From a virus: 64,000 bases of DNA. The stretch is from IMG/VR virus record IMGVR_UViG_3300021964_000014, one strand, 5' to 3'. Below the pieces are notes generated by a model. The model was not told the origin of the DNA and did no database searches. It saw only the letters and a list, made by a program, of their open reading frames with translations. A program made the translations under genes and the position numbers. The first letter of the stretch is position 1; each line of letters begins with the position of its first letter. Positions 1 through 47,587 of this stretch are shown here, one piece after another.

Positions 1-3000
1 ATATATCTAATGCTACAGAACTTGATAAAGAAGCAGAAGTTGAATTAATTAATGCTGCTTGATCATATGTACCGTCAGAAGAAGCTGTAAAGCTAGAACC
101 ATTCCAGATGTACATTTTATTTTGCTCACCTGTATGAATCCAAACATCACCTACTGTTCTACCAGAAGTAGAAGGAGAAGTTCCTTGTCTAAATATAGAT
201 GCTTTACCTGCTGCTACTGCATCTAAATCTGATAAATTAGATGCTAATGAGCTAGAAGTACTTGCTAAACTATCTGATAGAGAAGCATTAGAAGAAGATA
301 AACTAGTTGCTAAAGAGCCTGATAGAGTATCTACGCTACCTGTTACATAATCTTGAGTAGCTGCATTACCGCCTGTGATTGTTATAGCACCTTTTATTTC
401 TAAGGTACCAGTTCCTGCATCCCAAGCTAATTTATTTCCTGCTGACCCTGTTAAGAAAAAGTCACCAGTGTTATCCATATAAGTCTTCCAGGTACCTGAT
501 TCGTAGAATCCTAGGTTAGTAGAAGTTAAATATAAACCTGTAGCAGAAGCGGTTGGTGGTCTAACTGCTCTACCTGAGCTGTCAGTAAATATTTTTGCAT
601 CTAAAGTATTAGTTGTTGTAGCTATAGAGCCAGACAAAGCTGCGTCTGAAGCTGATATTTCTGTTGCTAATGATCCTGATAAAGAGCTGGTAGCAGCATT
701 TAGTTCTGCTGTATTAACTCCAGTTCCTCCTGTTATGTCAACAGCTCCTTTGATATTAAGTGTTGAACCATCCCAGTATATATAATTGTTTCCAGATGTT
801 GCAGTACCTACTCTAAACTTACCGGTACCGTCCATATAAATTCCATCACCTGCTGTGTTTGTTATTACACTAGCACTAACTCCTGCTTTTAAAGCTCCGT
901 TGTTAAGTGAACTTGAAATTATAAATGTTGGAGTATCTAAACTAAATGTTTGAGTCTTTATGTTTAAATTACCGTCTGTAAAGTTATCTAAAGATATAAA
1001 GTTGTTAGCTCCTCCTACTTTCCATGCACCATCTGTATACCAGTAGTTATTGTTGTTTACATAGATACCATCATTAGTACCTTGAACATCTCTACCGATA
1101 GAAATCTTTTGACCAGTTTCTAACCCTCCTTGAACAGTTGCTACATGAAGTATACCTGCAATAGAACCAGTTTGTGCTGTTATAGCTCCTTTGAAGTATC
1201 CATTTTCAGTATAAATACCAAAACCTGGTTCATCATCTCCGTATAAGTATGCAGAAGATAATCCTGATAGATCTCCTAATCTAGTTCTTAATTCTAAATC
1301 ATAAACCCCTGATCCTGTTCTTTCTACTATATCCATATAGGGTGTAGAAATATCTCTAGGATTAGCATTCATGAGCATATAACCAGAAGTAATATCTTTT
1401 TCTGGGTTATAAACACCAGTTGAAACTAATACCTGACCTTCATTATAAGGTTGAGCAGTTGATACTAAACCGGCTAAAAATTCTTTATCAGAATCAATCA
1501 AGTAAACAGTGTCACCATTAGTATGTGAATCTGCAACTGTGTCGTGGTAATCTCTAATTACTGTTAATACATTACCTGAAGTGGATATAGATGTGATTTT
1601 AAATCTTTCATCATCTATTTTAATAATATTTTGAACTGCTAAACTTGCAGTACTTGCTACAGTGATATCTGTTTCTATATCATCTAAGTCTTCTACTATA
1701 GTAGTAACTGAAGAAGATACAGCAGGTACACCTCCAAATGCTCTTTGAACATATATTTCACCTGCTAGTCCATCAGGGTCTATTGAACCTGTGTTGTAAG
1801 ATATACTACTATCTTGTGAATATCTTTTAGAACCCGATACATACATATACTCAACTGAGAATCCTGTATTATCGACTGATTTAGCTTTTAATATTTCACC
1901 TGTTTCAAATCCAGAAACGTTTGCTACTGAGAATGTAACAGCTGTGTCAGCATATGAAGAAGAGCCGGCTATAATAGCTCCTGCTTCACTTCTTAAAGGT
2001 TGTATGGTTGTAGCATTCGCTACCATCAACTGACCTCCAACTACGTTAACACTCTCTTTTTCAAATACAGTAGTTTTTAAAGTACCACGTATTCTCATAT
2101 TTTCAAACTCAGCAGAACCGTTTCCTAATGTATCTATTCTCCAACCTTTTACGTTGGTAGCAAAGTTAGAAGATTCTAACCTACCATCTGAATGTATTAT
2201 GAGTCCTGTTTCACCTTCTGCATATGCTCCTCCAAAACCAGAAGCAGGTATAGATCTAATCTGAGAGTCAGTTACTTCCCATCCTCCGATCTTATTACCT
2301 TCCTGACCAAACATTGCAATTGTATCAGCACTACCTGTCCCAGAACCATCATATATTTTAATACCGTATAAATCGGAAGCATCGTCTGATATTTCTCCTA
2401 ATCTTATAATTTCTTTTGAACCGGTATCAAAAATATTAAGTCTTTGAGTTGTGGTATCTATATCGAAATAAGTCGTGTCTAACTTAAAAGTTTCTGTCCT
2501 AATATCAACACCAGTGGTTGTATTGAACCTAAAGTAGTTACTAGCATTCTTAGTTAGATCTAATGTTGCTACAGTAGAGTCCATACCAAGTATAACACCG
2601 GCATCATTATTACCAAAAGTTGTTTTGGCTCCTGCTACTAAAAACGCATCATCAGTATTTCCTTCTAGTCTTACCTTATTTGTACTACCGGCTGTTATTT
2701 TTCCTTGTGCTCCTAAAAGTTCAACTTTACCGTCACCAAGTGACATAGAAGCTTCAGTAGAAGATATTTCTATATTAGAAGCTGATATTTCTAAAAGTCT
2801 TGTTGAGATTGATACGTCTGTACCGTCAAATTTAACAAAGCTATCTGAACCGTCACCTACATGGAATCTTGGAGTTCCGCCGTTGTATTGTAACTGTATA
2901 CCTTCATTACCATAAGTTGCGCTATTAATAGAAAAACTATTATCACTTGCATCTAATACTATATTAGTTGACTTTCTTATTTGAGTATTGGTAATATCCC

Positions 3001-3646
3001 ATCCTGCTATATTACCGCCGGTAAATAAAACATCTGAACCTGTTATCTCTCCGTTACCTTTTATGTTAAAAGCAGAAGATGATATGAAATATCCTGAGGT
3101 AGAGGCTGAACCTGACATATAAAATGAAGGTACACCTAAAGTTGATGGTCCTACTATAGCATCTGGTGTTATATTAAATCCACCAATTAAACCGGCAGAA
3201 GCAGTGATCTCACCTTCAATTACAGCACCAGAGGCATGCATATACCCACTTGAAGATATAGCAAAGTTAGAACCAAAATGTACGTAGTAGTTAGCTGATG
3301 GTTGGGGATTGAAAGTAATGTACCATTCATCGGAAGAAAGACCTCCGCTATCGCTTCCGGGTCCTTTTATTTTATCGTAGAATGAACCTGAGAATAGGTC
3401 TATAATCATCCTACTACCTGTTACTTGACTATTAGCTATATAAACATCACCAATAGATCCACCGTTTGTTTGAAAGTTTGCGAATGCTTCACCTCCAATA
3501 GGTACAGTTAGAGACGTTCCGTCTTTTCTTTGTAACAATAGTTGGTTTGCACCGAACGAAGCTGTGAAGAAAAACGATCTAAAATTTGCATCTAGTTCCT
3601 CATGAGTAAGAGGAGCGCCTTTTTCGTCTCTGAAAGTTATAGCCAT
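1..3646 (-). CDS. Very large tail fibre / host-recognition virion protein (runs off the left edge; absent from the ORF track)
   Basis: ATG at 3646 reads MAITFRDEKGAPLTHEELDANFRSFFFTASF; frame checked open at both ends (..LSSSVALDI at base 2); S/T/G-rich; contains GWRIDTLGNGSAEFENMRIRG and GDVWIHT..YIWNGS fibre-type motifs; late motif at 3663-3670. Confidence 0.8.
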   Translation of the reverse strand, partial: MAITFRDEKGAPLTHEELDANFRSFFFTASFGANQLLLQRKDGTSLTVPIGGEAFANFQTNGGSIGDVYIANSQVTGSRMIIDLFSGSFYDKIKGPGSDSGGLSSDEWYITFNPQPSANYYVHFGSNFAISSSGYMHASGAVIEGEITASAGLIGGFNITPDAIVGPSTLGVPSFYMSGSASTSGYFISSSAFNIKGNGEITGSDVLFTGGNIAGWDITNTQIRKSTNIVLDASDNSFSINSATYGNEGIQLQYNGGTPRFHVGDGSDSFVKFDGTDVSISTRLLEISASNIEISSTEASMSLGDGKVELLGAQGKITAGSTNKVRLEGNTDDAFLVAGAKTTFGNNDAGVILGMDSTVATLDLTKNASNYFRFNTTTGVDIRTETFKLDTTYFDIDTTTQRLNIFDTGSKEIIRLGEISDDASDLYGIKIYDGSGTGSADTIAMFGQEGNKIGGWEVTDSQIRSIPASGFGGAYAEGETGLIIHSDGRLESSNFATNVKGWRIDTLGNGSAEFENMRIRGTLKTTVFEKESVNVVGGQLMVANATTIQPLRSEAGAIIAGSSSYADTAVTFSVANVSGFETGEILKAKSVDNTGFSVEYMYVSGSKRYSQDSSISYNTGSIDPDGLAGEIYVQRAFGGVPAVSSSVTTIVEDLDDIETDITVASTASLAVQNIIKIDDERFKITSISTSGNVLTVIRDYHDTVADSHTNGDTVYLIDSDKEFLAGLVSTAQPYNEGQVLVSTGVYNPEKDITSGYMLMNANPRDISTPYMDIVERTGSGVYDLELRTRLGDLSGLSSAYLYGDDEPGFGIYTENGYFKGAITAQTGSIAGILHVATVQGGLETGQKISIGRDVQGTNDGIYVNNNNYWYTDGAWKVGGANNFISLDNFTDGNLNIKTQTFSLDTPTFIISSSLNNGALKAGVSASVITNTAGDGIYMDGTGKFRVGTATSGNNYIYWDGSTLNIKGAVDITGGTGVNTAELNAATSSLSGSLATEISASDAALSGSIATTTNTLDAKIFTDSSGRAVRPPTASATGLYLTSTNLGFYESGTWKTYMDNTGDFFLTGSAGNKLAWDAGTGTLEIKGAITITGGNAATQDYVTGSVDTLSGSLATSLSSSNASLSDSLASTSSSLASNLSDLDAVAAGKASIFRQGTSPSTSGRTVGDVWIHTGEQNKMYIWNGSSFTASSDGTYDQAALINSTSASLSSSVALDI

Positions 3647-3662
3647 TCTGTCTGTCCTTTAT

Positions 3663-3670
3663 TATAAATA
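3663..3670 (-). promoter_or_regulatory. Putative late promoter TATTTATA
   Basis: Same octamer recurs shortly upstream of about 15 late/structural genes. Confidence 0.6.
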
Positions 3671-3686
3671 CGCTCTAATTTGCTTA

Positions 3687-4583
3687 TTAGCCCGTATACA
3701 TAATATAAGCTAGAGCAAAATAAGGAGGTATATGATTGTCTGTTGGTACAGGGTGGCTATGACCACCTCCAGTACCTGTTGAGTTAGTAGTTCCACTTCT
3801 CCAATAAACATATTTGTTATCGTTATCACTGTCTCCACTACCTTTATATTTAGTAGGTCCTACGTAATCAGCTCCACCAAGAGTACCACTTGCTCCGGTA
3901 CCTGGGTTGTTAATTTCAATGTAGTAACTGTCTTTATATGTATGGGTATGTGAAGGTATTTGTCCTGCTGTTAATGTGTGAGCAGTTGTGTTACCTCCAT
4001 GATCGTGAGAAATATCACCGCCTGTCTGAGTAAAGTTGGAAATACCTTCGATGTAAGTTTTAGCAGTACCGCTTAAGTCTGAATGAGCACCTACGATAAA
4101 TTTATTTCTTAAATCAGGAGTACCGTTTGATCCATTACATAGTTTCCAACCTGAAGGTATAGTTGCTATAGTACCAGACCACATTATAATACCTCCTACC
4201 GGAATAGGAGCTGCATTAACCTGTCTAACTACTTGATTAGATTGTTGTACTAAGAAGTCATAATTAGTAGCTGATGATGCGGTTGGTATACTGTTTAGAG
4301 TAACTGAACCAGATAAGGTTGAGTTACCGTTTACAATTAGGTTAGCATTAGATGTTATAGAGCCTGTTATTACTGTATTACCAGCTACATTTAATCCTGC
4401 AGAACCTGATATACTTCCTTGTACTACTAATTGATAACCAGATACTTTAGTGGAGGTACCAATACCGACATCTCCATCTGAATGGAATGATGCTACTACC
4501 CTGTTATAAGAAGCAGAAACTGAAGATGTTACTGGTCCGGATAGTATATGGAAACCTTCGTTCCCACCTGACTGTACGCCCAT
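3687..4583 (-). CDS. Tail fibre protein, C-terminal part with tail-collar domain (probably continuous with 4586-5320)
   Basis: PVGGIIMWSG..IPSGWKLCNGSNGTPDLRNKFIVGA collar motif, HxH metal motifs, PPYFALAYIM end. Confidence 0.85.
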   Translation of the reverse strand: MGVQSGGNEGFHILSGPVTSSVSASYNRVVASFHSDGDVGIGTSTKVSGYQLVVQGSISGSAGLNVAGNTVITGSITSNANLIVNGNSTLSGSVTLNSIPTASSATNYDFLVQQSNQVVRQVNAAPIPVGGIIMWSGTIATIPSGWKLCNGSNGTPDLRNKFIVGAHSDLSGTAKTYIEGISNFTQTGGDISHDHGGNTTAHTLTAGQIPSHTHTYKDSYYIEINNPGTGASGTLGGADYVGPTKYKGSGDSDNDNKYVYWRSGTTNSTGTGGGHSHPVPTDNHIPPYFALAYIMYTG

Positions 4584-4585
4584 AA

Positions 4586-5320
4586 CTACATGACTGAATG
4601 TGGTCCTTCTAAAATTACACCTCTAGTGTTACCTCCTAGTAAGTTATTACCTAAGTTATTTTCAATACGAGCATCTGCGGAATCCCATGTGAATAGTTTT
4701 GTTCTATAAGAATCTTCTAATGTCTTACCAAATACTATACTACCGCTAATAACGTTATCACCTAATGGATAGTTTGCCCCTGCACCTCTAGTTTGGAAAG
4801 AACCGTCTCCTTTAATTACAAAAGAAGGTCCGCCACCAGTCCAGAAATTAATATTAGAGTCCGCACTTTCATATAAATTCTTAATTACTAAATCTGTACC
4901 TACTCCATCGTATGCTATACTTGCCGAATTAACTGCTACTGCTATATGTAATTCTCCGCCGTTTACAACAACGTTTCCACTATTTACTTTTAATTTTTCG
5001 TTAGTGCTTAAAGAAGTTGTACCTATACCTATACCGCCCTTTGCACTATCATATACTATATTAGTTGTTCCACCGAACGCTGTTGGAGAACTTTTATATT
5101 GTAATTCATTAACACTACCGGCTACTTGAACCGATCCTGTAAATGTGTTTAAGGGTATGTTTACAACTCCTGCTCCTTGCAGACCACTACCTGTGTAGTG
5201 TAGGTGTAAAGAAGAAGAGTCTGCCGGTATAGAAGCAGAATAGAAAAAACTTTGAAAGTTTATGTCTAACTCTTGGTAGGAAAGTGCAGTTCCTTTATTT
5301 GTTCTTAACGTTATTGCCAT
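4586..5320 (-). CDS. Tail fibre protein, N-terminal part
   Basis: MAITLRTNKGTALSYQELDINF start shared with the 1-3646 protein; GIGIGT repeat; apparent 1-nt frameshift into the next ORF. Confidence 0.75.
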   Translation of the reverse strand: MAITLRTNKGTALSYQELDINFQSFFYSASIPADSSSLHLHYTGSGLQGAGVVNIPLNTFTGSVQVAGSVNELQYKSSPTAFGGTTNIVYDSAKGGIGIGTTSLSTNEKLKVNSGNVVVNGGELHIAVAVNSASIAYDGVGTDLVIKNLYESADSNINFWTGGGPSFVIKGDGSFQTRGAGANYPLGDNVISGSIVFGKTLEDSYRTKLFTWDSADARIENNLGNNLLGGNTRGVILEGPHSVM

Positions 5321-5322
5321 GG

Positions 5323-6372: not shown

Positions 6373-6375
6373 TCA

Positions 6376-7395
6376 TTAATAATCAAGTTTAATTCTTATT
6401 AACGCTTCCTTTGTAAAGTCTTTTAATAGTGGTCTTGATAATTTTGCTACTCCTAATAAATCATTATTATCGTTATATAAACCAACTGAGGTAATATATG
6501 ATTGAGGATTGTTAACCATAGCACTATGTCTTAGCTCTCCTGATCCTGTTATATTAGAAGGGTTGTTAGAATAGTTAAATTCACTATTACGAACTCTTAC
6601 AAATACGTAATTAGATGAAATAGTTTCTTCTCCGTTTAATTTAAACGATTGACCGTTTTTGATTAAGTTATGAAGAACTGTGTTGTTTGTTCCGTTATTA
6701 ACTGCTGAACCTGTTGATGGATTAGCTACTGTTGAATTATCTCCAAATACGTGTGTAATTGCTTTTGCATTAAGTAAAACTAAACCTACATCAGGTAAAA
6801 ACTTACCAAAAGAAGCAATATACGAACCTGTTGTGTATCCTGTAGCACTCCAACTTACTGGTGAGCCATTTGATCCTTGAATTATATCGTAGACTCTTCC
6901 CGAATCATTATATGTTACTGTGGTTACATTTTGACTATTCTCGGTTAAAGATAAAGAAGCAGTACTATCGTTTAACGTAAGGTTAAATGTTCCAGGTAGT
7001 AATTTTTCTTTATACCTAGCTCTATCTACTGAGATAGCCCAAATACCTTTATCTCCAGACGATTGACCGCCAAAGTTAAAATCTGTTTCTTCATCTCCTA
7101 ATACTAGAGATCTATATTGACCGTAGATAGTACCTGAAGGAGATTTACCGGATACAGCAGAGTTATAAACTGTGGAACCTAATCCGTTCTTTTCTCCATA
7201 TGCTATAGAGTATTGAACTGAAGAGGTTGTTGCTGTGGCAAATACGTCTAAGTAATAGTCTCCGCTAGTTGCAGCTTCTTGTGTTGATGAAGTAAAAAAC
7301 GTAGTTAATTCATATGCTCCAGTACTCCAAACGGTAGAGGATATAGAGTCTGCACTTACAATTACGTCTTGATTATCGAATTTTTTAAATGACAT
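6376..7395 (-). CDS. Baseplate/tail-collar-associated structural protein
   Basis: C-terminal YITSVGLYND..LLGVAKLSRP motif. Confidence 0.65.
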   Translation of the reverse strand: MSFKKFDNQDVIVSADSISSTVWSTGAYELTTFFTSSTQEAATSGDYYLDVFATATTSSVQYSIAYGEKNGLGSTVYNSAVSGKSPSGTIYGQYRSLVLGDEETDFNFGGQSSGDKGIWAISVDRARYKEKLLPGTFNLTLNDSTASLSLTENSQNVTTVTYNDSGRVYDIIQGSNGSPVSWSATGYTTGSYIASFGKFLPDVGLVLLNAKAITHVFGDNSTVANPSTGSAVNNGTNNTVLHNLIKNGQSFKLNGEETISSNYVFVRVRNSEFNYSNNPSNITGSGELRHSAMVNNPQSYITSVGLYNDNNDLLGVAKLSRPLLKDFTKEALIRIKLDY

Positions 7396-7401
7396 ATCTT
7401 A

Positions 7402-8058
7402 TTATACTTTAGTTACGTTAATTGGAATAGTTATTCTAGCTCCACTATCTCTACCTATGATAGTAATTGTACTGTTGATACTAGTACTAGATGTTCCGTA
7501 TAACGTGTTAATTGTTGTACCTGTAATATTTACAGAAGTACCTATTACTGTTTTAGATACATTAGTACCTAAAGTTGTTACAGTATTTAATCTTTCTGCT
7601 TCTGCAGTATTAATCCCTACACCTGTAAAGTTAGAAAGTAGTCTCACATCGGCAATAGATACTGTGTATCCACTTGATTCATAAGCTTGTGAAGCTCCTA
7701 AGTAGTTGAGTGTTTGAGGAGTAATAGTTAATGAAGCTCCTTGCTTTAAAGTAATAGATGCATACCCTGCTTCTAGAATTGGTAGCTTTGCAGTACCTCT
7801 AGGAAGAGTTGCTAATTTATACTTCATTACTTGATTTTCATCAGGAAATGCTTCTAATAAAGGCATATTTTCGATAGCCTCACCATAATATGCAGAACCG
7901 GATGGGTGTAATGTATTATACAGAGTATAATCAATCTCATCATCGGCTAGTGCAAACTGGGTGATTCGGAAAGAGCCATCTCCCCTTGCTAAAAGCTCTC
8001 TTCCCTTTTTGGTTAAGATTGCGTCGACTGTTACGACTGAGTTGTTTAAGTATCCCAT
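7402..8058 (-). CDS. Conserved virion structural protein (baseplate/fibre attachment)
   Basis: DAILTKKGRELLA..ITQFALADDEIDY resembles N-termini of tail-fibre attachment proteins; late motif at 8081. Confidence 0.55.
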   Translation of the reverse strand: MGYLNNSVVTVDAILTKKGRELLARGDGSFRITQFALADDEIDYTLYNTLHPSGSAYYGEAIENMPLLEAFPDENQVMKYKLATLPRGTAKLPILEAGYASITLKQGASLTITPQTLNYLGASQAYESSGYTVSIADVRLLSNFTGVGINTAEAERLNTVTTLGTNVSKTVIGTSVNITGTTINTLYGTSSTSINSTITIIGRDSGARITIPINVTKV

Positions 8059-8080
8059 TTTTCTAACTTTGTTTATATAT

Positions 8081-8088
8081 TATAAATA
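8081..8088 (-). promoter_or_regulatory. Putative late promoter TATTTATA
   Basis: Intergenic octamer 22 nt upstream of the ATG at 8058. Confidence 0.6.
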
Positions 8089-8105
8089 TGTGTTGTTATT
8101 CTTTT

Positions 8106-9851
8106 TTATACTGTACATACCGGGCTAATTGCTGTAATGAACCCTCTATCGTTAGTATTTACTATTTTTCTAGTTTCTTTTACCCATATTTTCTGTTTTC
8201 CTACCGGAACTAACCTGTTACCTCTAGGTTTAAAAATTCTCGTACCGTGAAGTAAAGTAACTGATGAACCAGCTGCAAATCCGGCTTGTAGTCCGGCACC
8301 GTCGTAGTTTCTACTTACTTCTAATGTATAAAGTACAACTCCTCCAAACGGAGATGAGCTTTCTTGGGCAGAAAGTACTTGCATTATTTCTGTGTTTGCT
8401 CCTTGATCAGTAAACTTTACTACATCTCCAACTGCTATAGTTTGTCCTTTTGCTGCTGATATTATCACTGATGTGTCGTTTGCAGCGGATATAGGATTTG
8501 AAACATTTACGAACCCTAGTTCAACTGATGCAGTTGTTGGCATTTCTTCAGTACCTTCAAATAAAAAGTCTTCTATATTTCTATCTGAAAGAGATTGAGA
8601 GCAAATAAAGCCATTGTCTTCAGTAACTAAGTATGCTGCACCTTCAAATTGTGTAGCAGATACAGCTGAGCCTACACCTGAAAAGTCTGATTCAGATGTT
8701 TTAGTTCCATTGTACCTAGCATTAGAGTGACCGGTATGGGTGTAGTTTGAATCTTGGACTAGTGCTTGTGGGGCATAAGGTTGTTGAGTATCATAGTAAA
8801 ACCTAATAGGTAAACTTTCAGGTAAATCTTCAGATGTATGTAAAAATGATTTTATAGTCGATGTAGTCCCGTATGTACCTCCGTAGGAAATATAATTTGT
8901 CTGTTTTAGTCTTGCGTGTATAGTTGCAATCGCAGTACTACCTGTCATAGAATTTGCAATTATAGATAATTCAAAAGGGGTTACTGTGCTGTCTATAGTC
9001 CCGTCTATATTGGTTTGAACAGCTAAACTTTGAGTAACAAGATTAGAGCTATCGAATGAACCTGTGTCATCTATTTCTAAACTTAATGTATGTTGTATGC
9101 TGTACGAACCTGTGTTGGGGACTGATCCAAGTATTGGAAGTTTACCTTGTCCAATAGCAGAGCTTAAAGGACCTCGTTCAACTTTTATAGTAACAGCACG
9201 GTCATTAGGCACACTAATGGAATCAGAAATACTTTCTGACATAAAGTAGTTTGAAGCCGGTGCCCATGGTAGAGTGGTTTCTTTTAGAATTTTAGATCCA
9301 TTAGAATCTTCAAATTTCAAACCGCTTACGTTTATTTCTCCGATACCTGCGATTGCTGGGTAGTTAGTAGGAGCTACAAATCCACCGCCTCTATCTACAT
9401 CAAATCTCTTATTAGAAGAACGAATAGTGTCAGCATTACTAATTAAAGCGTTATAGTCGTTATTGAAAAAAGGTTCAGGTAAATAGGGTGTCAGAGTAAC
9501 GCTTCGTGGTTCTTGAGAAGGTAAAATATCTTGAAGATTAGTTAAAAACAAATCGTTTACGTCTATGTAGTAGTAAGAGGTATTTCCGGACTTGGGTTTG
9601 GATGTTTTGGTTATTACATTGAGCTGCTCCTGTGTTAAAGGGGCTTCTACAGTCGAGGTATCGTTTAGGGCTGCTCTTATCTGTTCTACTGCATCAAGAG
9701 ATAGTTTAACGTTGTTACCGTTTATATCTACATTAGATATGGTAATAGCTCTAACTTGGTCAGAGCCGTTAGTTGGTTTATATAGTACTCTCATCTGCCC
9801 TGCGGCTGGAGCAGTTTCTATAAATAAACCTATAGTAGTTTGTACTGACAT
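8106..9851 (-). CDS. Putative virion structural protein
   Basis: S/T-rich 581 aa protein in the tail module; late motif at 9865-9872. Confidence 0.55.
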   Translation of the reverse strand: MSVQTTIGLFIETAPAAGQMRVLYKPTNGSDQVRAITISNVDINGNNVKLSLDAVEQIRAALNDTSTVEAPLTQEQLNVITKTSKPKSGNTSYYYIDVNDLFLTNLQDILPSQEPRSVTLTPYLPEPFFNNDYNALISNADTIRSSNKRFDVDRGGGFVAPTNYPAIAGIGEINVSGLKFEDSNGSKILKETTLPWAPASNYFMSESISDSISVPNDRAVTIKVERGPLSSAIGQGKLPILGSVPNTGSYSIQHTLSLEIDDTGSFDSSNLVTQSLAVQTNIDGTIDSTVTPFELSIIANSMTGSTAIATIHARLKQTNYISYGGTYGTTSTIKSFLHTSEDLPESLPIRFYYDTQQPYAPQALVQDSNYTHTGHSNARYNGTKTSESDFSGVGSAVSATQFEGAAYLVTEDNGFICSQSLSDRNIEDFLFEGTEEMPTTASVELGFVNVSNPISAANDTSVIISAAKGQTIAVGDVVKFTDQGANTEIMQVLSAQESSSPFGGVVLYTLEVSRNYDGAGLQAGFAAGSSVTLLHGTRIFKPRGNRLVPVGKQKIWVKETRKIVNTNDRGFITAISPVCTV

Positions 9852-9880
9852 TAATTCTCTTTTATATAAATATTACAGTT

Positions 9881-10408
9881 CTAATTTAATACGTCTTTTA
9901 AAGTTCTTCTTGAATTAGGGTAAATACCTTTATCGTACATTTCCTTCCAATAGAAAAAAGACCTAGGAGGTTCATCGTGTTGTATCTTAAATAGACCTTC
10001 TACAATCTCTTCTGTGTATCGATACTCTTTATCAATTTCAATTTCTCCATCTCTTATTTTAGTATAACCTTTCCAGGGTCTTATTTTATAAAAAGGTTTA
10101 AAACCTTCTTCGTATGTAAACACATAAGAACAGTAGAAAATATCTACTAACTGAAGGTGTTTAAATCCTAACTTTATACCTTCTACTAATATATTTTTAA
10201 GCTCTAAATAATCTTCTATTTCTCCTACTACCATTATATCAGCATCCCAAGTCTCTGTCGTTAGTAAACTATCGCCTGCTAGATAAGTATACTTTTCAGT
10301 ACCGGGAATCTTAGAAAAGTCTGTATACCATTTTTTTAATCTCTCTTTATCGGGACGAAACCATGGAGTGTTAGTTTTTACTTCTCCTATTTTATATTCA
10401 AATTGCAT
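9881..10408 (-). CDS. Hypothetical protein, possible pol-beta-type nucleotidyltransferase fold
   Basis: G-S..TWDADIMV and later VDIFY acidic motif spacing; aromatic/charged composition unlike its neighbours. Confidence 0.35.
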   Translation of the reverse strand: MQFEYKIGEVKTNTPWFRPDKERLKKWYTDFSKIPGTEKYTYLAGDSLLTTETWDADIMVVGEIEDYLELKNILVEGIKLGFKHLQLVDIFYCSYVFTYEEGFKPFYKIRPWKGYTKIRDGEIEIDKEYRYTEEIVEGLFKIQHDEPPRSFFYWKEMYDKGIYPNSRRTLKDVLN

Positions 10409-10419
10409 CTGTTTATGTA

Positions 10420-13400
10420 TTATGGACTTGAGAAGCCTCCTCCGCCAGAAGCAGAACTAGGGCCTTGGAATACCGGAAATGAATCTAGTGTTATACTTTG
10501 GTACACTAGGGCTACTGTACCGGTTCTGTTTTGTGTTGTACTTGGATTAGTATCAACTAATGCATTTATTGAGGTATCGTCTCCTGTGCCGGATGCTCCA
10601 CTTATACCTATCCAGGTTGGTTTAGTAATTTGCCAGCCTAAGTTATTTGGAGTAACATTAACTGACATAATAAATCCTTGTCCATTGCCGCTCAAGCTCA
10701 GGGTAGGATTAGGTGTTGTGGTGACCGAAATATCACCGCTCAATGCAGTGTATGAGTTAGTATCGGTAACGTTACTACTTTGATTATTAACATTATCTTT
10801 TGCGTAAACTGTAGCTGTTACAGTCCCTGAGTTCATGCTGTGTTGATTAGCTATTATAGCTATATTCTTAAAAGTTACACCGCTATAGGATACGGTTCCA
10901 TTTACAGAACCTCCTCCAGTAGATGCTAGATTCCAATAGATTATCCCTGAGCTGCTTAGCCCTTCTACTTTTAGGTAAAAGTTACCTGTGTTATTAGTGG
11001 TTTCGTCTAAAGAGTAACCTGAGTTTTTAAACTTCACAGAGGTTAGTGTAGGTGCTGTAGTATCTTTCACTAGGTTGAGAGAGGAACCAAAAATACTTGC
11101 AGCAGTTGCTAGTGAGCCTGTTTGGGCGCCATCTGCTAGTCTTACGTTGAGTAGTAGGGTACCATCAGAGTTAATGTCTGATGCATCAATTGAAATAGAT
11201 TGAGTGGCTGAATTAGTAATAGTTCCTGTGGATGTGTTACTGCTAAATGTTCCACTTAATGATGCTGAAGCAAAATAAGTTGTACCTATTTCTCCTCCGT
11301 AAATGTTAGCACTTAAAGTTGTATCATTTGTTGATGCGTTTACATAAGCAGGGAATTGGGTCCATGAAGTTGTATAGCCAGAAGGTGCTACATTATCAAA
11401 AGTACTACAGTCAGTTTGGGCTAATACCTGCCCTTTAGTCACACCTGGGCTGTCAATCTGTATAACCCTGTTAAATCCTGATATATGCCACCAATTGTCT
11501 CCTCCGTCTAGGGTATTAGCACCTGCAGAGTCTGTGTATATCATATCCCCAATAGTAGGTATCGTGCCTGTACCACTGTGGTAAAAAGTTGTTGTTGCCC
11601 CACTTACTTGACAAGCTAATGAATCTGTGCTTCCCGTGGTTTGGTACATACTAAAGTTCTTTAGTGAAGCTACATCTAAAGGAACACCTACTACGTTATA
11701 AGTAAGGACAGGGGGTTTTTGTTTTTTAAATATATTTTCTATATTCAGTTCCCCATTAGTAATAGTAAGAGTACTACCTCCTAGTTCTCCGTTATATTGA
11801 GGAGATTCATCATCTACCGATCTTACTAAAGAGCCTGATTTTGTTTCTACAGTTATGTTGTGTATTGTAGAGCTTTCTAAAGATGCACTTCTATAAACTT
11901 GAGCTCCTTGTTTCTCAAGTTGGGTGGTATAGTAGGCTCCTCCATGTGAGCCGGTAAAGAATGCTGTGTCTATGCTAGCAGAATAGTTAGGTTCAGTAGC
12001 TGTTACTATTGGTGATTTTACTTTAGACCTGTCTAAGATATGAGGTTTAATTATTATACCTGTATCAACTGATGCTCTAGCAGGTACAAAATCTCTAACC
12101 ATTTTAAAGAGAACATTATCAAAAAATTTGAATATTCTAACAAAATCATTTAATTCAAACCTTTGTACAGAACTCAATAATACTCGTTCAGCTTCTTTAT
12201 TAAGAGAAATATAAGAACTACTATTTAATTCTCTTGGGTCTCCAATATAATCGTCTATATTAAAGTTAGTAGGTAGTTGAGAAAGAATGTAGGTATTAAT
12301 ACTATCTGAAGGTGAAAAACCTACCTCCAGTCTATGGAAGTCTTTTGTCCTTTCAACTTCTTTTTTCTGAATTGATACATCCTTACTTAGCACTTTTCCT
12401 ACAGAACCGCTTGCTCTAGTTTCTATACGTACTTTAGAAACCGAGGTAGTGTGTTCTTTTTCTTCTGCTACAAATTTACTTTCCCCTACTGTTTGACCTC
12501 CGTATTGCTTAATTTTAAGAAAGTCTGATGGGATACCAAAGCAATTAACAAGTGCTCTTAATCCTCTTTCTGTTCCTTTAGTTTTAGATAAAAAAGGTAA
12601 ATTATGGTATATTCTTTTATAGACTTCTCCTTCGTAGTCTTTTGTGGATAACGGCTGTGCGTCTGCAGGTAAATCGCTGACAGTAACGAAGTTATTTACG
12701 ACCTCATTAAAACTTCCGCTATCGTAACTTTCACCTATGAGGTACTTAAAGAGGTTATTTGAACTCTCTGCTGAGTTATGTAGCTTTACTCCGAAACTTT
12801 TTAACACTTCTTGTACTAGGTCTTTAGAAATCCCAACATCTACCCTATTGTCGTTATTATATTTATCAGTTATAGCTTTACTATAAATCCATAAATTGTC
12901 AAAGTGGTGACCAATCATATGTGCAAATAAGACACCGTTAGTGTTGTTACTATCTTCTGAGATAAAACTAGGTAAGGTTGCGCTTAAAAGATCATAGTTA
13001 GAGGTGTCGTAGTTTGATGCACTAGTTAGTTGGTTAGCGTACCAGCTTACTGCTTCTGATGATGTAGAGTGTAGGTTTATATGTGGCTTAGTTGTTGTAC
13101 TTTTAGGCCAGGAGTAGGAACCGCTAGAGTAGTATAAATGTCTTTCATAGTGATCAAAATTACTAACTACTCCTCGTATAAGGCTGTTGTAGTTGCTAGC
13201 GCTACCAGAAGAGTTATTGCTAACTGTATTAACTGAATCTAAACTTGCTTGGTACGTTTCTAACAATCGTAATTTGTATCGAAAGTTTTTCAACCTTTCC
13301 TCAGCAGAAGAGAAGTTGATAAAGTTACTATAGTTAGTGTAGTCTACGTTTATCTGTACACTGTTGTCCTGTATTAAGGATAGTATTTCTCTATTACTGT

Positions 13401-14208
13401 TTTCTGAGTTATAACTAAATAATTCATTGTAGTTGAAGTATTCAGTAGGAGTTGATGATTTAGTATCGGTATCAATATTAAAATTAGCTTGTCTAAGTTT
13501 AGAAAATACTTCTACATCATCATACTCTACTTCTGTGTCAATAATAACAGCAATAGAATCACTAACTTTCTCTACTACCTGTACAACTGCTTTTTTATTG
13601 TGCTTTGATGGAAGGGGTTCGTATAACTTTACAGCTATACCAAACTTACCGTTTATTTCTATACTGTTTATATTGGTAATAATATAAAGGTCGTTGTCTC
13701 CAAAGTTTAACCAAAGCTCTTCAAAATACCCTTCTACAGTTAAATCATCTTTTAATGCTTCTGTGATATTAACTATGTCGTTTTTATCTAAGTTATTAGA
13801 GTATAAAAACAGCTCTGTTCTATCGGCAGCTATATCTTGAACGAAAAAGTTTTCTTTTTGTTTACCCTCACTATATACATCATCTAAGAAATGGAATACC
13901 ATTTTTAGATCTACATTAGAAAATCCTTCTTTAACAGCTATTTCATCAGGTTTGATATATATTTGACCTGCTGAACCGTCTTCTAAATCTACATTGTCTG
14001 CATCTAAAGATAAAGGGTAGTCGTATAGAGAGTAGAGTTTTTCATTGTTGATACTATAGAAATGAGACTCTATGAAGTTAGTTTCAAAATCGAATGTTCT
14101 ATTTACTTCAAAATTATCAATAAGCTTCATATCAGAAGATGAGTACGTTTCATTCTCTGGTATAGTGTTTAGCTTTGTGTCTAATATTTGATATGTAACT
14201 TTAGCCAT
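10420..14208 (-). CDS. Large baseplate wedge-type protein with C-terminal Ig-like and BACON-like domains
   Basis: KTKGTERGLRAL..FG and VRDFVPAR..TGIII motifs of baseplate wedge proteins; C-terminal W..T.PTW....SGTG....V..N....RTGTV BACON signature. Confidence 0.7.
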   Translation of the reverse strand: MAKVTYQILDTKLNTIPENETYSSSDMKLIDNFEVNRTFDFETNFIESHFYSINNEKLYSLYDYPLSLDADNVDLEDGSAGQIYIKPDEIAVKEGFSNVDLKMVFHFLDDVYSEGKQKENFFVQDIAADRTELFLYSNNLDKNDIVNITEALKDDLTVEGYFEELWLNFGDNDLYIITNINSIEINGKFGIAVKLYEPLPSKHNKKAVVQVVEKVSDSIAVIIDTEVEYDDVEVFSKLRQANFNIDTDTKSSTPTEYFNYNELFSYNSENSNREILSLIQDNSVQINVDYTNYSNFINFSSAEERLKNFRYKLRLLETYQASLDSVNTVSNNSSGSASNYNSLIRGVVSNFDHYERHLYYSSGSYSWPKSTTTKPHINLHSTSSEAVSWYANQLTSASNYDTSNYDLLSATLPSFISEDSNNTNGVLFAHMIGHHFDNLWIYSKAITDKYNNDNRVDVGISKDLVQEVLKSFGVKLHNSAESSNNLFKYLIGESYDSGSFNEVVNNFVTVSDLPADAQPLSTKDYEGEVYKRIYHNLPFLSKTKGTERGLRALVNCFGIPSDFLKIKQYGGQTVGESKFVAEEKEHTTSVSKVRIETRASGSVGKVLSKDVSIQKKEVERTKDFHRLEVGFSPSDSINTYILSQLPTNFNIDDYIGDPRELNSSSYISLNKEAERVLLSSVQRFELNDFVRIFKFFDNVLFKMVRDFVPARASVDTGIIIKPHILDRSKVKSPIVTATEPNYSASIDTAFFTGSHGGAYYTTQLEKQGAQVYRSASLESSTIHNITVETKSGSLVRSVDDESPQYNGELGGSTLTITNGELNIENIFKKQKPPVLTYNVVGVPLDVASLKNFSMYQTTGSTDSLACQVSGATTTFYHSGTGTIPTIGDMIYTDSAGANTLDGGDNWWHISGFNRVIQIDSPGVTKGQVLAQTDCSTFDNVAPSGYTTSWTQFPAYVNASTNDTTLSANIYGGEIGTTYFASASLSGTFSSNTSTGTITNSATQSISIDASDINSDGTLLLNVRLADGAQTGSLATAASIFGSSLNLVKDTTAPTLTSVKFKNSGYSLDETTNNTGNFYLKVEGLSSSGIIYWNLASTGGGSVNGTVSYSGVTFKNIAIIANQHSMNSGTVTATVYAKDNVNNQSSNVTDTNSYTALSGDISVTTTPNPTLSLSGNGQGFIMSVNVTPNNLGWQITKPTWIGISGASGTGDDTSINALVDTNPSTTQNRTGTVALVYQSITLDSFPVFQGPSSASGGGGFSSP

Positions 14209-14217
14209 ATTGTTTTA

Positions 14218-15039
14218 TTACATTTTTATTAACCTATATTGAAGTCTCTTTGCGGAGTCTAAACTAAAGTTAACTCTTTGTTTGATGGGAGTGCTATTAA
14301 GACCTTCTAATTTTATACTGCCATCGTATTCAGTATCTGGGAATAGTTGATATAGGTCTTGTATTAGTGCTTTTACCTTCTTATTATCCCTCTTATTATC
14401 TAATCTTCTTTTCTTCTTTTTTCTTCTAGCTCTAGAGCTCCAATTAATTATGGAATTCATTCTCTTTTGATCATCAACAGATACGTAAGTAGCTACTTCT
14501 TGTACTTTCCTATCTCTTTTAGCTTTTTCTTCTGCATCTGCAGCTGCTTCAGATGCCTGTGCTGCTGCATCGTTTGATGCGGATAGTGCGTCGTTAACCG
14601 ATTGTTGTGCTTCTAGGGCAGCATTTTGAGCATTTGCTGCTGCTAATTGAGCTCTTAAAGCTGCTAATTGTTCTGCACTTGAGAAGTCTAATTCTTCTCC
14701 TCCTGCTAATTGAAGTTCGAGTTCTAGGATTTGTCTGTTAGAATCTAGTAGTTGAGTTCTCAAAGAGGATATTTCGTCTAGTAAAGGCTGTATTGCATCT
14801 AGTTGGTTATCTACTGCGTATAGTTCTGAGCTTCTTTCTACTAGGTATTGGTGAGTCTGGTTAGGACCTTCTATAGCAATCTGTGCATAAAATTTTTCAT
14901 ATAGTCTAAATAACTCTTCAATAGTATCGGTATCTACCACAGGTTCAGGTTGCTTAAATACCTTAAACTGCCTGTCTATGACATCTGAATATGCTTCAGA
15001 ATTAAATACTGTCTTTACTATTTTTACTGTCTTACCCAT
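14218..15039 (-). CDS. Hypothetical coiled-coil protein in the baseplate module
   Basis: ORF with Ala/Gln-rich helical core and a basic C-terminal patch. Confidence 0.5.
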   Translation of the reverse strand: MGKTVKIVKTVFNSEAYSDVIDRQFKVFKQPEPVVDTDTIEELFRLYEKFYAQIAIEGPNQTHQYLVERSSELYAVDNQLDAIQPLLDEISSLRTQLLDSNRQILELELQLAGGEELDFSSAEQLAALRAQLAAANAQNAALEAQQSVNDALSASNDAAAQASEAAADAEEKAKRDRKVQEVATYVSVDDQKRMNSIINWSSRARRKKKKRRLDNKRDNKKVKALIQDLYQLFPDTEYDGSIKLEGLNSTPIKQRVNFSLDSAKRLQYRLIKM

Positions 15040-16135
15040 TTCTTACTACCTTGAAAGTTTGATCTGTATCTACTATAGAAGTAGAACCGTCAATCTCAGT
15101 CTTAATTAATAATCTATAATATCTTTCTGGCTGCAATCCATCCATGTAAATGTCAAAGTAGTTAGATGTATTATCAGCACTAATTTTTGTATACGTAGTA
15201 TCAAAATCAAATACCATTTCTTCAGTATTCTCATCCTTCAGTCCCCAATAGGAGGCGGTAGGTAAGGTATAGTTAACAGTGTATGCTGAAGATGTTGTGA
15301 AAGTTCTTGTTGGATATTTAGGTCTAGAATGTATTCTAAATCTTTGTTTACCTTCGTCAGTATAGTTTCCTTTATTATTCTTTATACTCACTACTACTTC
15401 TGGGTCTGTTATTTCAGTTAAACTACTTGAATGAGTGTAGTCATCCCATTTTATATCTAAACTAGGAGGGTAAATAGTGTTGGTATCGTTACCGTAATAC
15501 TTTAATCTAACAGAAGCTGATAAATTATTTTCAAGATTGTTAGGAAGTTTTAGTATAAATCCATTATTTGGTAAACTACCACTGTAGTGTTTAAGTACTG
15601 CATCAGAGATGTTAATATTTAAATCATAGTCTGAGTTCTTATTAAAGGCTTGAGAGGCTTCTAGTGTACCGTCTGCAGAAGCTGTGTACCATGTTCCTCC
15701 TCCCATAGTATCTGATTCAAAAGAAGCAGTTACGTATGTTGTAAAACTACCAGTCTTCCAGTGATCTGCAGCACCTGCATTCCTATAGTTCCAGCTACAT
15801 CCTGTTTTATTTGTAGGAGTATCTCCGAACTTGCCAGTTCCTTCATCCCATGATTCAGCTAAAGGGTAGCAGTTAATATTAAACTCAATAGGTAGTTCGT
15901 TAGCATAGTTAAGGTACATATGTAAGTCAGTTCTTACAGTACCGCCGCCAGCTTTATTATTGATTATATCTTGTATTTCAGTTGTGTCAAACTGTATTAA
16001 TGTTCTTAATGTTTGACCACCAGCTGATGTGTGATAGCCTCCAACCTCTAATAGTTCATCTCTACCGTTATTAGCTAGTTGCTTTTCAGTATAGATAAAT
16101 GAATCTTTTGAACTAAATAATTTATATATTGCCAT
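15032..16135 (-). CDS. Virion structural protein (DNRLRE/CBM-like beta domain)
   Basis: KDSFIY..NNGRDELLE..RTLIQFD..ESWDEGTG..W..NNGFILK..YPPSL motif series. Confidence 0.55.
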   Translation of the reverse strand: MAIYKLFSSKDSFIYTEKQLANNGRDELLEVGGYHTSAGGQTLRTLIQFDTTEIQDIINNKAGGGTVRTDLHMYLNYANELPIEFNINCYPLAESWDEGTGKFGDTPTNKTGCSWNYRNAGAADHWKTGSFTTYVTASFESDTMGGGTWYTASADGTLEASQAFNKNSDYDLNINISDAVLKHYSGSLPNNGFILKLPNNLENNLSASVRLKYYGNDTNTIYPPSLDIKWDDYTHSSSLTEITDPEVVVSIKNNKGNYTDEGKQRFRIHSRPKYPTRTFTTSSAYTVNYTLPTASYWGLKDENTEEMVFDFDTTYTKISADNTSNYFDIYMDGLQPERYYRLLIKTEIDGSTSIVDTDQTFKVVRNG

Positions 16136-16136
16136 C

Positions 16137-17936
16137 TTATAATGTTGTTACTCTTCCTTGTATATCACTGTTAGGGTATTTTACTTCAAATATCATAGGA
16201 TCTAAAGAAGGGTAAACAATGTTACTTTTAGTTGCTCCTTCTATATCATAATCAAACTCAGAGTAGTTTCCTCCTACTTTAGTATTTAATTTTATATTTT
16301 GTACAGTTTGTACCCCTTTTACTCTATCTAATAGTGTATAAAGAGAAGAAAGGTTTATTGGTTGATTTATACTTCTTTTATCTATATTGAAAAAAGATTT
16401 TAATTCATTATTACACCTTAGTAGTACATCTCTAGAATTAAAATTAGGTAATGTAATAATATCAAACTTAACTCCTATATTAATAACAAATGCATCTTTT
16501 ATAGTTATACTATCAGTAAGCATCATAAACTGTGATATATGTGTTTTAAGGTTGTTTTTAAGTTCGGTTGAGCTTTGTATTAGGTGTTTATTATTATCGT
16601 ATGATAGTACGTACATGCTTACCCCTAGAGGGTTACTTTCTTTATAGTCTGCCGGTTTTACTGTGTCGTCTGTGGTTACGAATGTTTTTGCAATTGAACC
16701 CATTGTAGGAGGTAGAGTCATTGCTCTAAATGCGTAATCTTGCTTTGTAACAACTCTTCCCTGTTCAGCGAATGCTCTTAAAGAGTTCTGTCTTAGCTCT
16801 TCCACTGTGTCTCCGTCTTTTCCTCCCGTGGCTCCTTTATTATTGTTTACTGTTAAGGTAGATTGATACGTTGTATCTGTAGCTGTTGAAGAGACGTTTT
16901 TTAATCCAACTATAGTGTTCGCTTCTACGTTTGATGCAATTCCTCCTCCTTTTAAGTAACGTATAGTTAGTGTTGTGTTAGAGGGAGCGTTACCGTAAGA
17001 TTCTGAGAATAAAAAATTAGATGGATCATATGCGTGATCTGTTCTACGTATTCCTGCGTTAGTGCCGGATCCTACATTGGTTGGGTTAGGTAGAAAGGTG
17101 TCGTCATTTGTGCTTGACATCCCTGCCCCGAACTGTATCTGTAATTTTCCTGTGGAGGTAAATCTACTTACAAACCTGTTGGGTACGTTTTGAAGAGAAA
17201 GTAAGTAGGGTACTTTGTCTGCATTAGAGCCTCCGTTTATACTTTCAACGTATACGGTGTCTTGTCCTAAGAAAGGAACCTCGTACCAGGTGTTACCGCT
17301 ACTGTCTACTATGTCTAGAATTCCAATTATATCAGTATCGTCTATATCTAGGGTAAGAAATTTAGAAGAAGCTCCTATAGTTTCTAGTTTTGTGACTACT
17401 GATCCTGCTTTAGCTTTAGCTCTTTTAGTAAGTAAGTATTCTGCCGGTTGGTTGTTATTAATGCTGTAGATAGTTATGTCGGTAGGGTCATAGGAGCTCG
17501 AAAAGCTAAAGTCTACCCTATCATCAATAATAAACTCATAGTCACCTGCGGCTACTGTAGCTCCGCTGCTTATATTAAGTGCTTGATCCCAGTTAGGTAG
17601 AAACTCAGAACCGGTTGCAGCAACTCTTTGAGTAAACTGCACTTCAACTGTTGATGCTGTTGTTACCTTGGGAGTGTATCCCATCATGTACGCTAACGAA
17701 TATAGGTTCCCGGGATCTTGTGCGTACTGTAGTAGAGTTTCTTGGAGTTGACTATCTTGATAAAATGATAGTATATCTCCTACATATGCAGCCATTTCTA
17801 CAAACATCATTCCCGGTGATGTAGGGGAGAAATCGTTATAAGTATCAGGGTAGTAGTTTTTAGCGAATTCTACTAGTTGACTTCTCAAGTTTGAAAAGTT
17901 TTTATCTGTATACTTTATTGTTACGTTTTGAGCCAT
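16137..17936 (-). CDS. Baseplate wedge subunit (T4 gp6 / baseplate J-like)
   Basis: EMAAYVGDILSFYQD, IQFG.G, GGKDGDTVEELR, QGRVVTKQDY motifs. Confidence 0.9.
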   Translation of the reverse strand: MAQNVTIKYTDKNFSNLRSQLVEFAKNYYPDTYNDFSPTSPGMMFVEMAAYVGDILSFYQDSQLQETLLQYAQDPGNLYSLAYMMGYTPKVTTASTVEVQFTQRVAATGSEFLPNWDQALNISSGATVAAGDYEFIIDDRVDFSFSSSYDPTDITIYSINNNQPAEYLLTKRAKAKAGSVVTKLETIGASSKFLTLDIDDTDIIGILDIVDSSGNTWYEVPFLGQDTVYVESINGGSNADKVPYLLSLQNVPNRFVSRFTSTGKLQIQFGAGMSSTNDDTFLPNPTNVGSGTNAGIRRTDHAYDPSNFLFSESYGNAPSNTTLTIRYLKGGGIASNVEANTIVGLKNVSSTATDTTYQSTLTVNNNKGATGGKDGDTVEELRQNSLRAFAEQGRVVTKQDYAFRAMTLPPTMGSIAKTFVTTDDTVKPADYKESNPLGVSMYVLSYDNNKHLIQSSTELKNNLKTHISQFMMLTDSITIKDAFVINIGVKFDIITLPNFNSRDVLLRCNNELKSFFNIDKRSINQPINLSSLYTLLDRVKGVQTVQNIKLNTKVGGNYSEFDYDIEGATKSNIVYPSLDPMIFEVKYPNSDIQGRVTTL

Positions 17937-31851: not shown

Positions 31852-31920
31852 AACCTTTATTGCTTTATTAATATACCTTAATATAAGAAAAAACCCAATA
31901 GGATCCAACTATTTCACTAG

Positions 31921-44900: not shown

Positions 44901-44901
44901 A

Positions 44902-47585: not shown

Positions 47586-47587
47586 AA

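Follow-up and report, generated by a model that had tools for sequence, protein, structure and literature searches.

The tripeptide [ST]-[GA]-S is three to seven times commoner than chance predicts in the tail, baseplate, and fibre proteins that face outward in a Flavobacterium-type phage, represented by the virus record IMGVR_UViG_3300021964_000014, and in its relatives. The 64,000-nucleotide stretch of this record that was analysed is referred to here as the window, and the 12 virion open reading frames (ORFs) examined lie within its positions 1-17936. The motif, usually found after Ile, Val, or Tyr and never before Pro, is most likely a selected, lineage-specific tag of surface loops in a myophage group that is very abundant in aquatic habitats. 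Tentatively, with a probability slightly short of one half, it can be read as a modification sequon, probably for O-glycosylation by a conserved pair of glycosyltransferases (GTs) encoded in the same window. Three elements of that reading are inferred: modification of the motif at all, a sugar as the modifying group, and the GT pair as the writer.

All long ORFs of the window are on the minus strand, and its first part (1-24 kb) is a myophage baseplate and fibre module. The closest cultured relative is Flavobacterium phage vB_FspM_immuto (hereafter immuto), with a genome of 160 kb, which is syntenic in gene order and shares ~67% nucleotide identity across half of an 8-kb probe. Further comparisons draw on two near-complete IMG/VR relatives, on Microcystis phage Mel-JY01, for which a literature search yielded no paper, and on Rhodothermus phage RM378.

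Enrichment of the tripeptide in virion proteins

The 12 virion ORFs contain 102 occurrences of the wider form of the motif, [ST][GAS]S, where whole-protein shuffles predict 36.2 (z 11.4) and local shuffles over 8 residues 43.8 (z 9.6). When every tripeptide in these ORFs was scanned without bias, TGS (25 vs 5.5 expected) and SGS (23 vs 6.6) took ranks 1 and 2, and permutations of the same residues were not enriched (SGT 12, GST 7, GTS 6, GSS 4, SSG 9). SSS and TSS add little, leaving [ST]-[GA]-S as the real core. A sequence-only reading of the window had drawn attention to these tripeptides in several structural proteins, and its counts proved accurate: the 349-amino-acid (aa) baseplate/fibre protein holds exactly 7 SGS, 2 TGS, 1 TAS, 1 SAS, and 1 TSS, the 367-aa baseplate protein, put at about 8 sites, has exactly 8, and the 1262-aa wedge-like protein and the long fibre at 1-3646, described as having many, have 18 and 35. 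That reading had also pointed to a 580-aa secreted protein (58869-60611, minus strand), which carries an N-terminal signal peptide and matches a cohesin domain, as a sign that composition alone is not the cause. This protein contains 0 SGS and 0 TGS despite 27% S+T+G, and the global and local shuffles bear the argument out.

The signal is concentrated in a subset of the virion proteins. The long tail fibre, the fibre-associated protein, the 349-aa and 367-aa baseplate proteins, and the 1262-aa wedge-like protein are individually significant, and the tail-collar-type and 339-aa proteins are borderline. The ORFs at 7402-8058, 8106-9851, 9881-10408, 14218-15039, and 16137-17936, which encode inner or less exposed proteins, show no enrichment. 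The proposal that the motif marks virion proteins therefore holds for the fibres and peripheral baseplate proteins, and fails for these five. The only non-virion signal in the window comes from the poly-Ser tract of 55534-57009 (minus strand), a 491-aa protein in which a run of ~20 serines is followed by an SG/GE-rich linker.

Several trivial sources of the excess were considered and rejected. An artefact of composition is excluded by the global and local shuffles and by the permuted tripeptides. A DNA-level motif or codon effect is excluded by sequence variety, the 48 TGS/SGS sites falling into 34 distinct 9-mers and using both classes of Ser codon. Paralogy extends to two short common modules, far too little for the signal: the long fibre and the fibre-associated protein have a 34-aa N-terminal module in common (56% identity), and the 349-aa and 339-aa proteins a 75-aa C-terminal module (36% identity). 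These modules probably serve as adaptors for attachment or assembly; apart from them the proteins of each pair are unrelated, so that the enriched proteins, which had been called unrelated, are largely but not wholly so. Periodic cryptic repeats are absent from the window proteins, the gaps between sites in 2-3646 and 10420-14208 ranging from 2 to 222 residues with no period; short internal repeats occur in the immuto tail spike alone.

The motif had also been described as distinct from the host-type sequon, D-S/T followed by a hydrophobic residue, and it is: in none of the virion proteins tested does D-[ST]-[AILVMT] depart much from expectation (z 0.7-0.9). The 580-aa secreted protein has 1 such host-type site vs 3.6 expected.

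Position specificity

The residue requirements of the motif were computed from a pool of 468 S/T/G-rich clade proteins. Position 1 accepts Ser (4.3x) and Thr (4.1x) almost equally, the next best residue being Asp at 1.5x; position 2 favours Gly (4.2x) over Ala (2.0x); and position 3 is restricted to Ser (4.2x), with Thr (1.05x) and Asn (0.99x) not enriched. Proline immediately C-terminal of the motif is reduced to 0.04x, and the residue preceding it tends to be Ile or Val (~2x each) rather than Lys or Arg (0.28x). The same asymmetry is present in the window, immuto, and Mel-JY01 taken separately, [ST]GT being at ~1x in each.

Alignment columns from 121 homologues give a matching picture. Ser and Thr interchange at position 1 (T57/S50, T78/S37) and Gly and Ala at position 2 (G56/A51, A89/G11), and position 3 is a near-invariant Ser (S118/119, S118/121, S116/118). 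Hydrophobic residues make up 51-62% of those at -1 and 50-72% of those directly after the motif. Judged from these sequences, the specificity of the motif is asymmetric and looks like that of a sequon read by an enzyme.

Turnover and location of sites

Sites shift between orthologues while their density stays. Window and immuto orthologues with 40-61% identity have 3/14, 3/11, 1/4, and 3/6 sites in common, the first of these ratios being that of [ST][GA]S sites in the 1262-aa protein, and both phages are enriched. The first three ratios uphold the suggestion of independent gain, the sites arising at positions that are not homologous. Within the families of the 367-aa and 349-aa proteins, enrichment amounts to 5.6x and 7.1x, respectively, and every one of the 121 homologues in each is enriched. 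Each family has 2-3 columns in which more than 80% of members carry the motif and 20-29 columns in which fewer than 20% do, and lineage-specific insertions carry it at 4.8x over their own composition.

The structural setting of the sites was read from DSSP strings of AlphaFold models of the 349-aa and 367-aa proteins. The former model is of moderate quality, with a predicted local distance difference test (pLDDT) score of 66; the latter (pLDDT 86.8) has as its best matches chondroitin- and alginate-binding modules. In these two models, coil accounts for 78-79% of motif residues, compared with 50-55% of the residues of the whole proteins. Contexts are mixed and include mid-loop, pre-strand, and post-strand positions, helix N-caps, helix C-termini, and low-confidence segments; in the 349-aa model the sites are in coil, helix caps, and strand ends. 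A tight hairpin, with strands within two residues on both sides, surrounds 0/20 sites in these two models, which do not include the fibres. The sequence-only reading had anticipated exposed loops; a loop location is what the models show, and the hydrophobic flanks fit strand-adjacent positions.

In immuto, enrichment extends to the sheath and to two proteins of a second structural module, one of 373 aa (135075-136196; 13 [ST][GA]S sites vs 1.8 expected) and one of 139 aa (131320-131739; 4 vs 0.6). All 21/21 sheath sites in the orthologues from immuto, an IMG/VR relative, and Mel-JY01 are in the variable N-terminal or middle part, and the conserved C-terminal 40% of the three proteins has 0. 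In T4 gp18 the variable part of the sheath faces outward, and by analogy the variable part that bears the motif sites may do so as well. Throughout the immuto genome no non-structural protein is enriched, and among the structural ones the portal, tape measure, inner baseplate, and capsid proteins show no significant enrichment. These counts give no support to the idea that a dense coat covers the whole virion.

Distribution across phages

The bias is a property of one phage super-group whose hosts come from three phyla. Measured as [ST]GS observed/expected in long S/T/G-rich ORFs, it amounts to 3.5 in the window, 3.0 in immuto, 4.2 and 2.8 in the two near-complete IMG/VR relatives, 3.3 in RM378, and 4.3 in the whole genome of Mel-JY01, rising to 6.6 in the tail module of that phage, where SGS and TGS are the top two tripeptides. 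Across 71 related IMG/VR loci, the median for the [ST][GA]S form is 2.9 (range 1.2-5.7). Control phages gave 0.8 (T4), 0.95 (T5), 1.5 (KVP40), 1.6 (S-PM2), 1.9 (HTVC008M), and 2.0 (lambda), and in these controls TGS and SGS were never near the top of the tripeptide ranking. A generic property of phage fibres is excluded by T4, T5, lambda, KVP40, and S-PM2, HTVC008M showing just a mild 1.9x. An effect of host phylum is excluded as well, the bias being strongest in the Microcystis phage.

The pelagimyophage HTVC008M (NC_020484) has 46 [ST]GS vs 23.9 expected, with SGS ranking 16th of 728, and no homologue of either conserved GT was detectable in it; its excess may reflect the bias in a weaker form or an unrelated one. 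RM378 (NC_004735) has at 64.8-78.5 kb six adjacent ORFs of 362-680 aa, each with 3-6 sites vs 0.3-1.3 expected, for which no homology to window proteins was detectable. RM378 was considered as an independent lineage and rejected as such: it belongs, though very distantly, to the same super-group, and its homologue of the window's 6376-7395 protein has 27% identity.

The conserved glycosyltransferase pair

A sugar cluster occupies 42-50 kb of the window and encodes two epimerase/dehydratases, a GT2-family enzyme, a DXD glycosyltransferase, and two GT1-like enzymes. The only clade-wide genes of this cluster are those of a 432-aa GT and a ~480-aa GT; the other sugar genes vary between relatives. 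A conserved pair with a variable remainder fits a conserved acceptor step combined with a variable glycan. The candidate writers could in this way be narrowed by clade conservation from the whole cluster to 47588-48886 and 48922-50369. All three relatives of at least 90% completeness encode the pair, with 57-69% identity vs 52-54% for the baseplate protein; the 432-aa GT accounts for 57-58% in complete relatives and 44% in Mel-JY01, and the ~480-aa GT for 63-69% in relatives. In immuto and Mel-JY01 the two genes lie side by side in an unchanged order, as do their much diverged counterparts in RM378 (9165-10619 and the next ORF), which supports the expectation that the motif travels with phage glycosyltransferases across relatives. 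Among control phages, a homologue of the ~480-aa GT was found in 0/5, and a profile of the 432-aa GT found none in two of those five.

The family of the 432-aa GT has at least 8000 members, and its ESM Atlas clusters are all viral. Six residues of its C-terminal domain (E294, G295, G297, R298, P299, and E302, forming an E294-x7-E302 motif) are invariant in 36 homologues. Against the Pfam Glycos_transf_1 model, with a cut-off of 26.4 bits, 48922-50133 scores 35.6 bits and 47588-48886 scores 24.9 bits, and precomputed tables list PF00534 for the 432-aa GT and most of its homologues. The members of the pair are marginally alike (E 0.012). The proteins of 42005-50133 have no transmembrane-like segment, and the cluster is without Wzx, Wzy, or a priming transferase.

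Distant relatives also permit a comparison in which one enzyme is missing. The uncultured phage LR756508 (484 kb) encodes homologues of the 367-aa baseplate protein (23% identity) and, distantly related, of the ~480-aa GT (28.5%); no homologue of the 432-aa GT was detected in it, a profile search included. LR756508 is unenriched, with 33 sites vs 26.4 expected (1.25x), TGS ranking 751st and SGS 406th. Its baseplate orthologue has 1 site, vs 8 in the window and 6 in Mel-JY01, and shows TSG, EGS, or a gap at the near-invariant motif columns of the clade. Because this homologue does without the motif, the baseplate fold does not need it. Loss of the motif in LR756508 coincides with absence of the 432-aa GT in this one outgroup. 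The expectation that the motif changes with the GT set, followed here as presence or absence, agrees with what is seen in this single relative.

Table 1. Coordinates of virion and sugar-cluster features in the window
Feature	Position	Strand	Remarks
Long tail fibre	2-3646	-	ORF extends past window; 1215 aa seen; 35 [ST][GAS]S vs 10.8 expected; irregular spacing
Tail-collar-type fibre protein, 298 aa	3687-4583	-	6 sites vs 2.8 expected, all N-terminal of conserved collar domain
Fibre-associated protein, 244 aa	4586-5320	-	6 sites vs 1.6 expected
Baseplate/fibre protein, 349 aa	5323-6372	-	12 sites vs 2.2 expected
Baseplate protein, 339 aa	6376-7395	-	6 sites vs 3.0 expected, borderline
Large wedge-like baseplate protein, 1262 aa	10420-14208	-	18 sites vs 8.0 expected
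Peripheral baseplate protein, 367 aa	15032-16135	-	8 sites vs 1.1 expected; beta-sandwich fold like that of a carbohydrate-binding module
Baseplate-J-like protein	16137-17936	-	3 sites vs 2.2 expected, not enriched; internal-component contrast
Variable sugar-cluster part	42005-47585	-	includes three soluble ORFs without family assignment
NAD-dependent epimerase/dehydratases	43824-44900, 46295-47146	-	variable part
DXD glycosyltransferase	44902-45657	-	variable part
GT2-family GT-A	45657-46298	-	variable part
432-aa GT-B (GT4-like) glycosyltransferase	47588-48886	-	soluble; clade core gene; candidate writer
~480-aa GT-B glycosyltransferase	48922-50369	-	frameshift-split into 50369-50094 and 50133-48922
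PD-(D/E)XK nuclease and 123-aa protein	50597-51883	-	neighbours of GT pair, syntenic in immuto and Mel-JY01

Proposed mechanism and points that weigh against it

In the mechanism considered most likely, virion proteins would fold and assemble in the cytoplasm, where the soluble GT-B pair would recognise the tripeptide and O-glycosylate one hydroxyl, either that of the invariant Ser at position 3 or that of the Ser or Thr at position 1. The products of the variable neighbouring genes (epimerases/dehydratases and GT-A enzymes; in relatives also aminotransferases and methyltransferases) would make and extend a lineage-specific glycan. An enzyme-read tag is favoured because it explains the restriction of position 3 to Ser beside the acceptance of Thr at position 1, the acceptance of Ala for Gly, the mixed structural contexts, and the motif-free fold of the outgroup, as well as a density that stays constant while sites turn over and the confinement of sites to exposed parts. 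The occurrence of the motif in phages of Bacteroidota, Cyanobacteria, and Rhodothermus hosts indicates a shared acceptor and points to one made by the phage. The proposal in full, in which a virus-only soluble GT-B pair reads [ST]-[GA]-S with no Pro after it and places a glycan on fibres, baseplate periphery, and outer sheath of phages from three host phyla, the variable sugar cassette diversifying that glycan, is to be taken as tentative, its probability lying somewhat below even.

A number of observations weigh against glycosylation of the motif by this pair. The association between the GTs and the motif rests on very few independent events, namely one super-group and one outgroup. Avoidance of the motif in non-virion proteins would have supported a cytoplasmic writer, and there is none: these proteins stand at 0.95-0.99x in the clade and 1.13-1.17x in controls, an apparent 0.39x in immuto having failed to replicate. 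The hydrophobic flanks (Ile or Val before; Leu, Tyr, Ala, or Ile after) suit strand-adjacent positions, and the major capsid protein of immuto, with 3 sites vs 1.2 expected, is not significantly enriched. The GT pair could act on DNA or another acceptor, a possibility to which its genomic neighbours and the GT4-conflict domains discussed below contribute. Finally, relative to the intact immuto gene, the ~480-aa GT has a frameshift near 50164-50166: residues 1-68 of the 480-aa immuto protein align to 50369-50166 and residues 70-480 to 50163-48925, with no obvious slippery run at the junction. Sequencing indels are a plausible cause, because other overlapping ORF pairs look similar; those at 30710-31908, 41206-41965, and 53372-54062 (minus strand), several with TTG starts, are possible frameshifts or assembly indels. 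Elsewhere, the Mel-JY01 copy of the gene is annotated as two coding sequences, and one IMG/VR relative has an in-frame TAA.

Alternative explanations

The tripeptide might be an unmodified, lineage-specific loop or strand-cap motif, with two exposed hydroxyls flanking a small residue, that this phage group reuses in beta-rich outer tail domains, the GT cluster serving another purpose; this main rival is unlikely, though it deserves serious weight. It would account for the hydrophobic residues at -1 (51-62%) and after the motif (50-72%), for the several sites directly before or after a strand, for the two or three columns per family that are more than 80% conserved, for the lack of avoidance in non-virion proteins, and for the mild 1.5-2x excess in some GT-free marine myophages. 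Turn or strand propensity, however, should tolerate Thr or Asn as the third residue and demand Gly as the second, and neither is seen; nor does such a motif fit 0/20 tight hairpins, contexts that range from helix caps to disordered loops, window fibres without periodic spacing, positions that turn over while new insertions are equally enriched, a homologous fold in LR756508 that does without it, or its lack in T4 and T5 fibres. A statistical artefact of S/T/G-rich composition, low complexity, repeats, paralogy, or a DNA-level motif is hardly credible. The virion proteins are indeed S/T/G-rich, the immuto tail spike has repeats, and 55534-57009 has its poly-Ser tract; against this stand the local-shuffle z of 9.6, the unenriched permuted tripeptides, the varied 9-mers and codons, and two globular, repeat-free families enriched 5.6-7.1x in all 121 members each.

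If the motif is read, its reader need not be the GT pair. Other modifying enzymes (a kinase, an acyl- or methyltransferase), assembly factors, chaperones, and host-surface binding partners could fill this role, since specificity and turnover alone do not name the reader, and relatives encode GroEL/GroES and methyltransferases. This explanation is quite improbable: of the enzyme pairs found, the GT pair alone matches the motif in presence and absence, and neither a kinase nor any other candidate writer turned up that is conserved along with the motif, in a search that was not exhaustive in either respect. Conversely, the GT pair might glycosylate phage DNA, a lipid-linked acceptor, or a host acceptor, its co-occurrence with the motif reflecting shared ancestry, which is rather unlikely. 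GT4 enzymes often use lipid-linked acceptors without having transmembrane segments, which counts in favour of such an acceptor. Related Atlas clusters contain GT4-conflict domains, and the pair adjoins a PD-(D/E)XK nuclease and a weak match to a nucleotide-modification domain, the latter in the 123-aa protein (51512-51883, minus strand; sub-threshold match to Pfam DUF1599, nucleotide modification associated domain 1, E 4e-5), which is kept in Mel-JY01 at 40% identity. Phage GTs known to hypermodify DNA (cited in PMC12619734) count for a DNA acceptor in particular. On the other side, no hydroxymethyl-pyrimidine pathway was seen among the annotated genes of immuto, whose ThyA scores as a true thymidylate synthase (326 bits); no hydroxymethylase is annotated there, unannotated ORFs and the last 5.5 kb being outside this examination, and 7-deazaguanine is the sole annotated DNA modification pathway. 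The lack of Wzx, Wzy, and a priming transferase in the cluster also counts against this reading, and conservation across three host phyla speaks against a host-specific acceptor. The immuto ThyA (26884-28155; 423 aa) matches its model in two stretches, which suggests an insertion (an intein, a homing element, or an extra domain).

Relation to known glycosylation systems

To our knowledge, virion glycosylation by phage enzymes has been demonstrated so far in mycobacteriophages, with no simple sequon. In the Che8-type system (Freeman et al. 2023, Cell Host Microbe, as quoted in PMC12619734), capsid and tail-tube subunits reportedly carry the glycans at their C-termini. As far as that quotation goes, phage-encoded GTs are proposed there, as here, to attach glycans, within the cytoplasm, to structural proteins of the same phage, whereas the candidate sites of the window are a tripeptide scattered in loops of fibre, baseplate, and outer sheath, not C-termini. 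The phages also differ, those of the window group being Gram-negative and cyanobacterial phages. Among solved structures, the best and nearly sole match to both conserved GTs is B736L of chlorovirus NY-2A (PDB 3oy2). This match is weak, with E-values of 1.7e-4 and 6e-3 for single sequences and 6e-5 for a profile, over ~65-140 residues of the nucleotide-sugar-binding core; B736L and the phage pair are both virus-encoded GT-B enzymes. Chloroviruses glycosylate their capsid with GTs of their own, and the glycans are N-linked at atypical sites of the capsid protein.

Bacterial systems offer likenesses of other kinds. GtfA/GtfB is a streptococcal O-linked N-acetylglucosamine transferase pair that acts on serine-rich-repeat adhesins. 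Like the phage pair, it is encoded by two adjacent GT-B genes; it acts in the cytoplasm, as proposed for the phage pair, and its acceptors are of the Ser-small-Ser type, e.g., SAS; however, no sequence relationship was detected between the two pairs, and the candidate acceptors of the phages are isolated tripeptides in folded proteins rather than long repeats. The bacterial autotransporter heptosyltransferases TibC and AAH, which act on TibA and AIDA-I, carry out cytoplasmic O-glycosylation of loop Ser residues between beta-strands. As in the proposed phage system, many Ser residues in short loops of a surface structure are involved, although the enzyme family, heptosyltransferase, differs from the GT-B pair. 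The general O-glycosylation system of Bacteroidota (D-S/T-A/I/L/V/M/T) resembles the phage motif in having a three-residue sequon with a hydrophobic residue after the acceptor, and it belongs to the host phylum; in contrast to cytoplasmic virion assembly, it acts after export, and the phage bias is also present in a cyanophage.

Implications

Two of the phages concerned, immuto (host Flavobacterium sp. LMO8) and Mel-JY01 (host Microcystis), are in culture, which makes the proposal testable. If the sites prove to be unmodified, [ST]-[GA]-S would still be an unusually sharp, lineage-specific sequence 'dialect' in surface loops that needs a structural explanation. If the proposal is true, it would provide the first sequence rule by which glycosites on phage particles can be predicted, and a GT family that counts thousands of members in aquatic metagenomes would have its function assigned. 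Abundant phages of marine and freshwater habitats would then have a receptor-binding apparatus coated with sugar, which would bear on host recognition, resistance to grazing and enzymes, aggregation, and recognition by antibodies or lectins.

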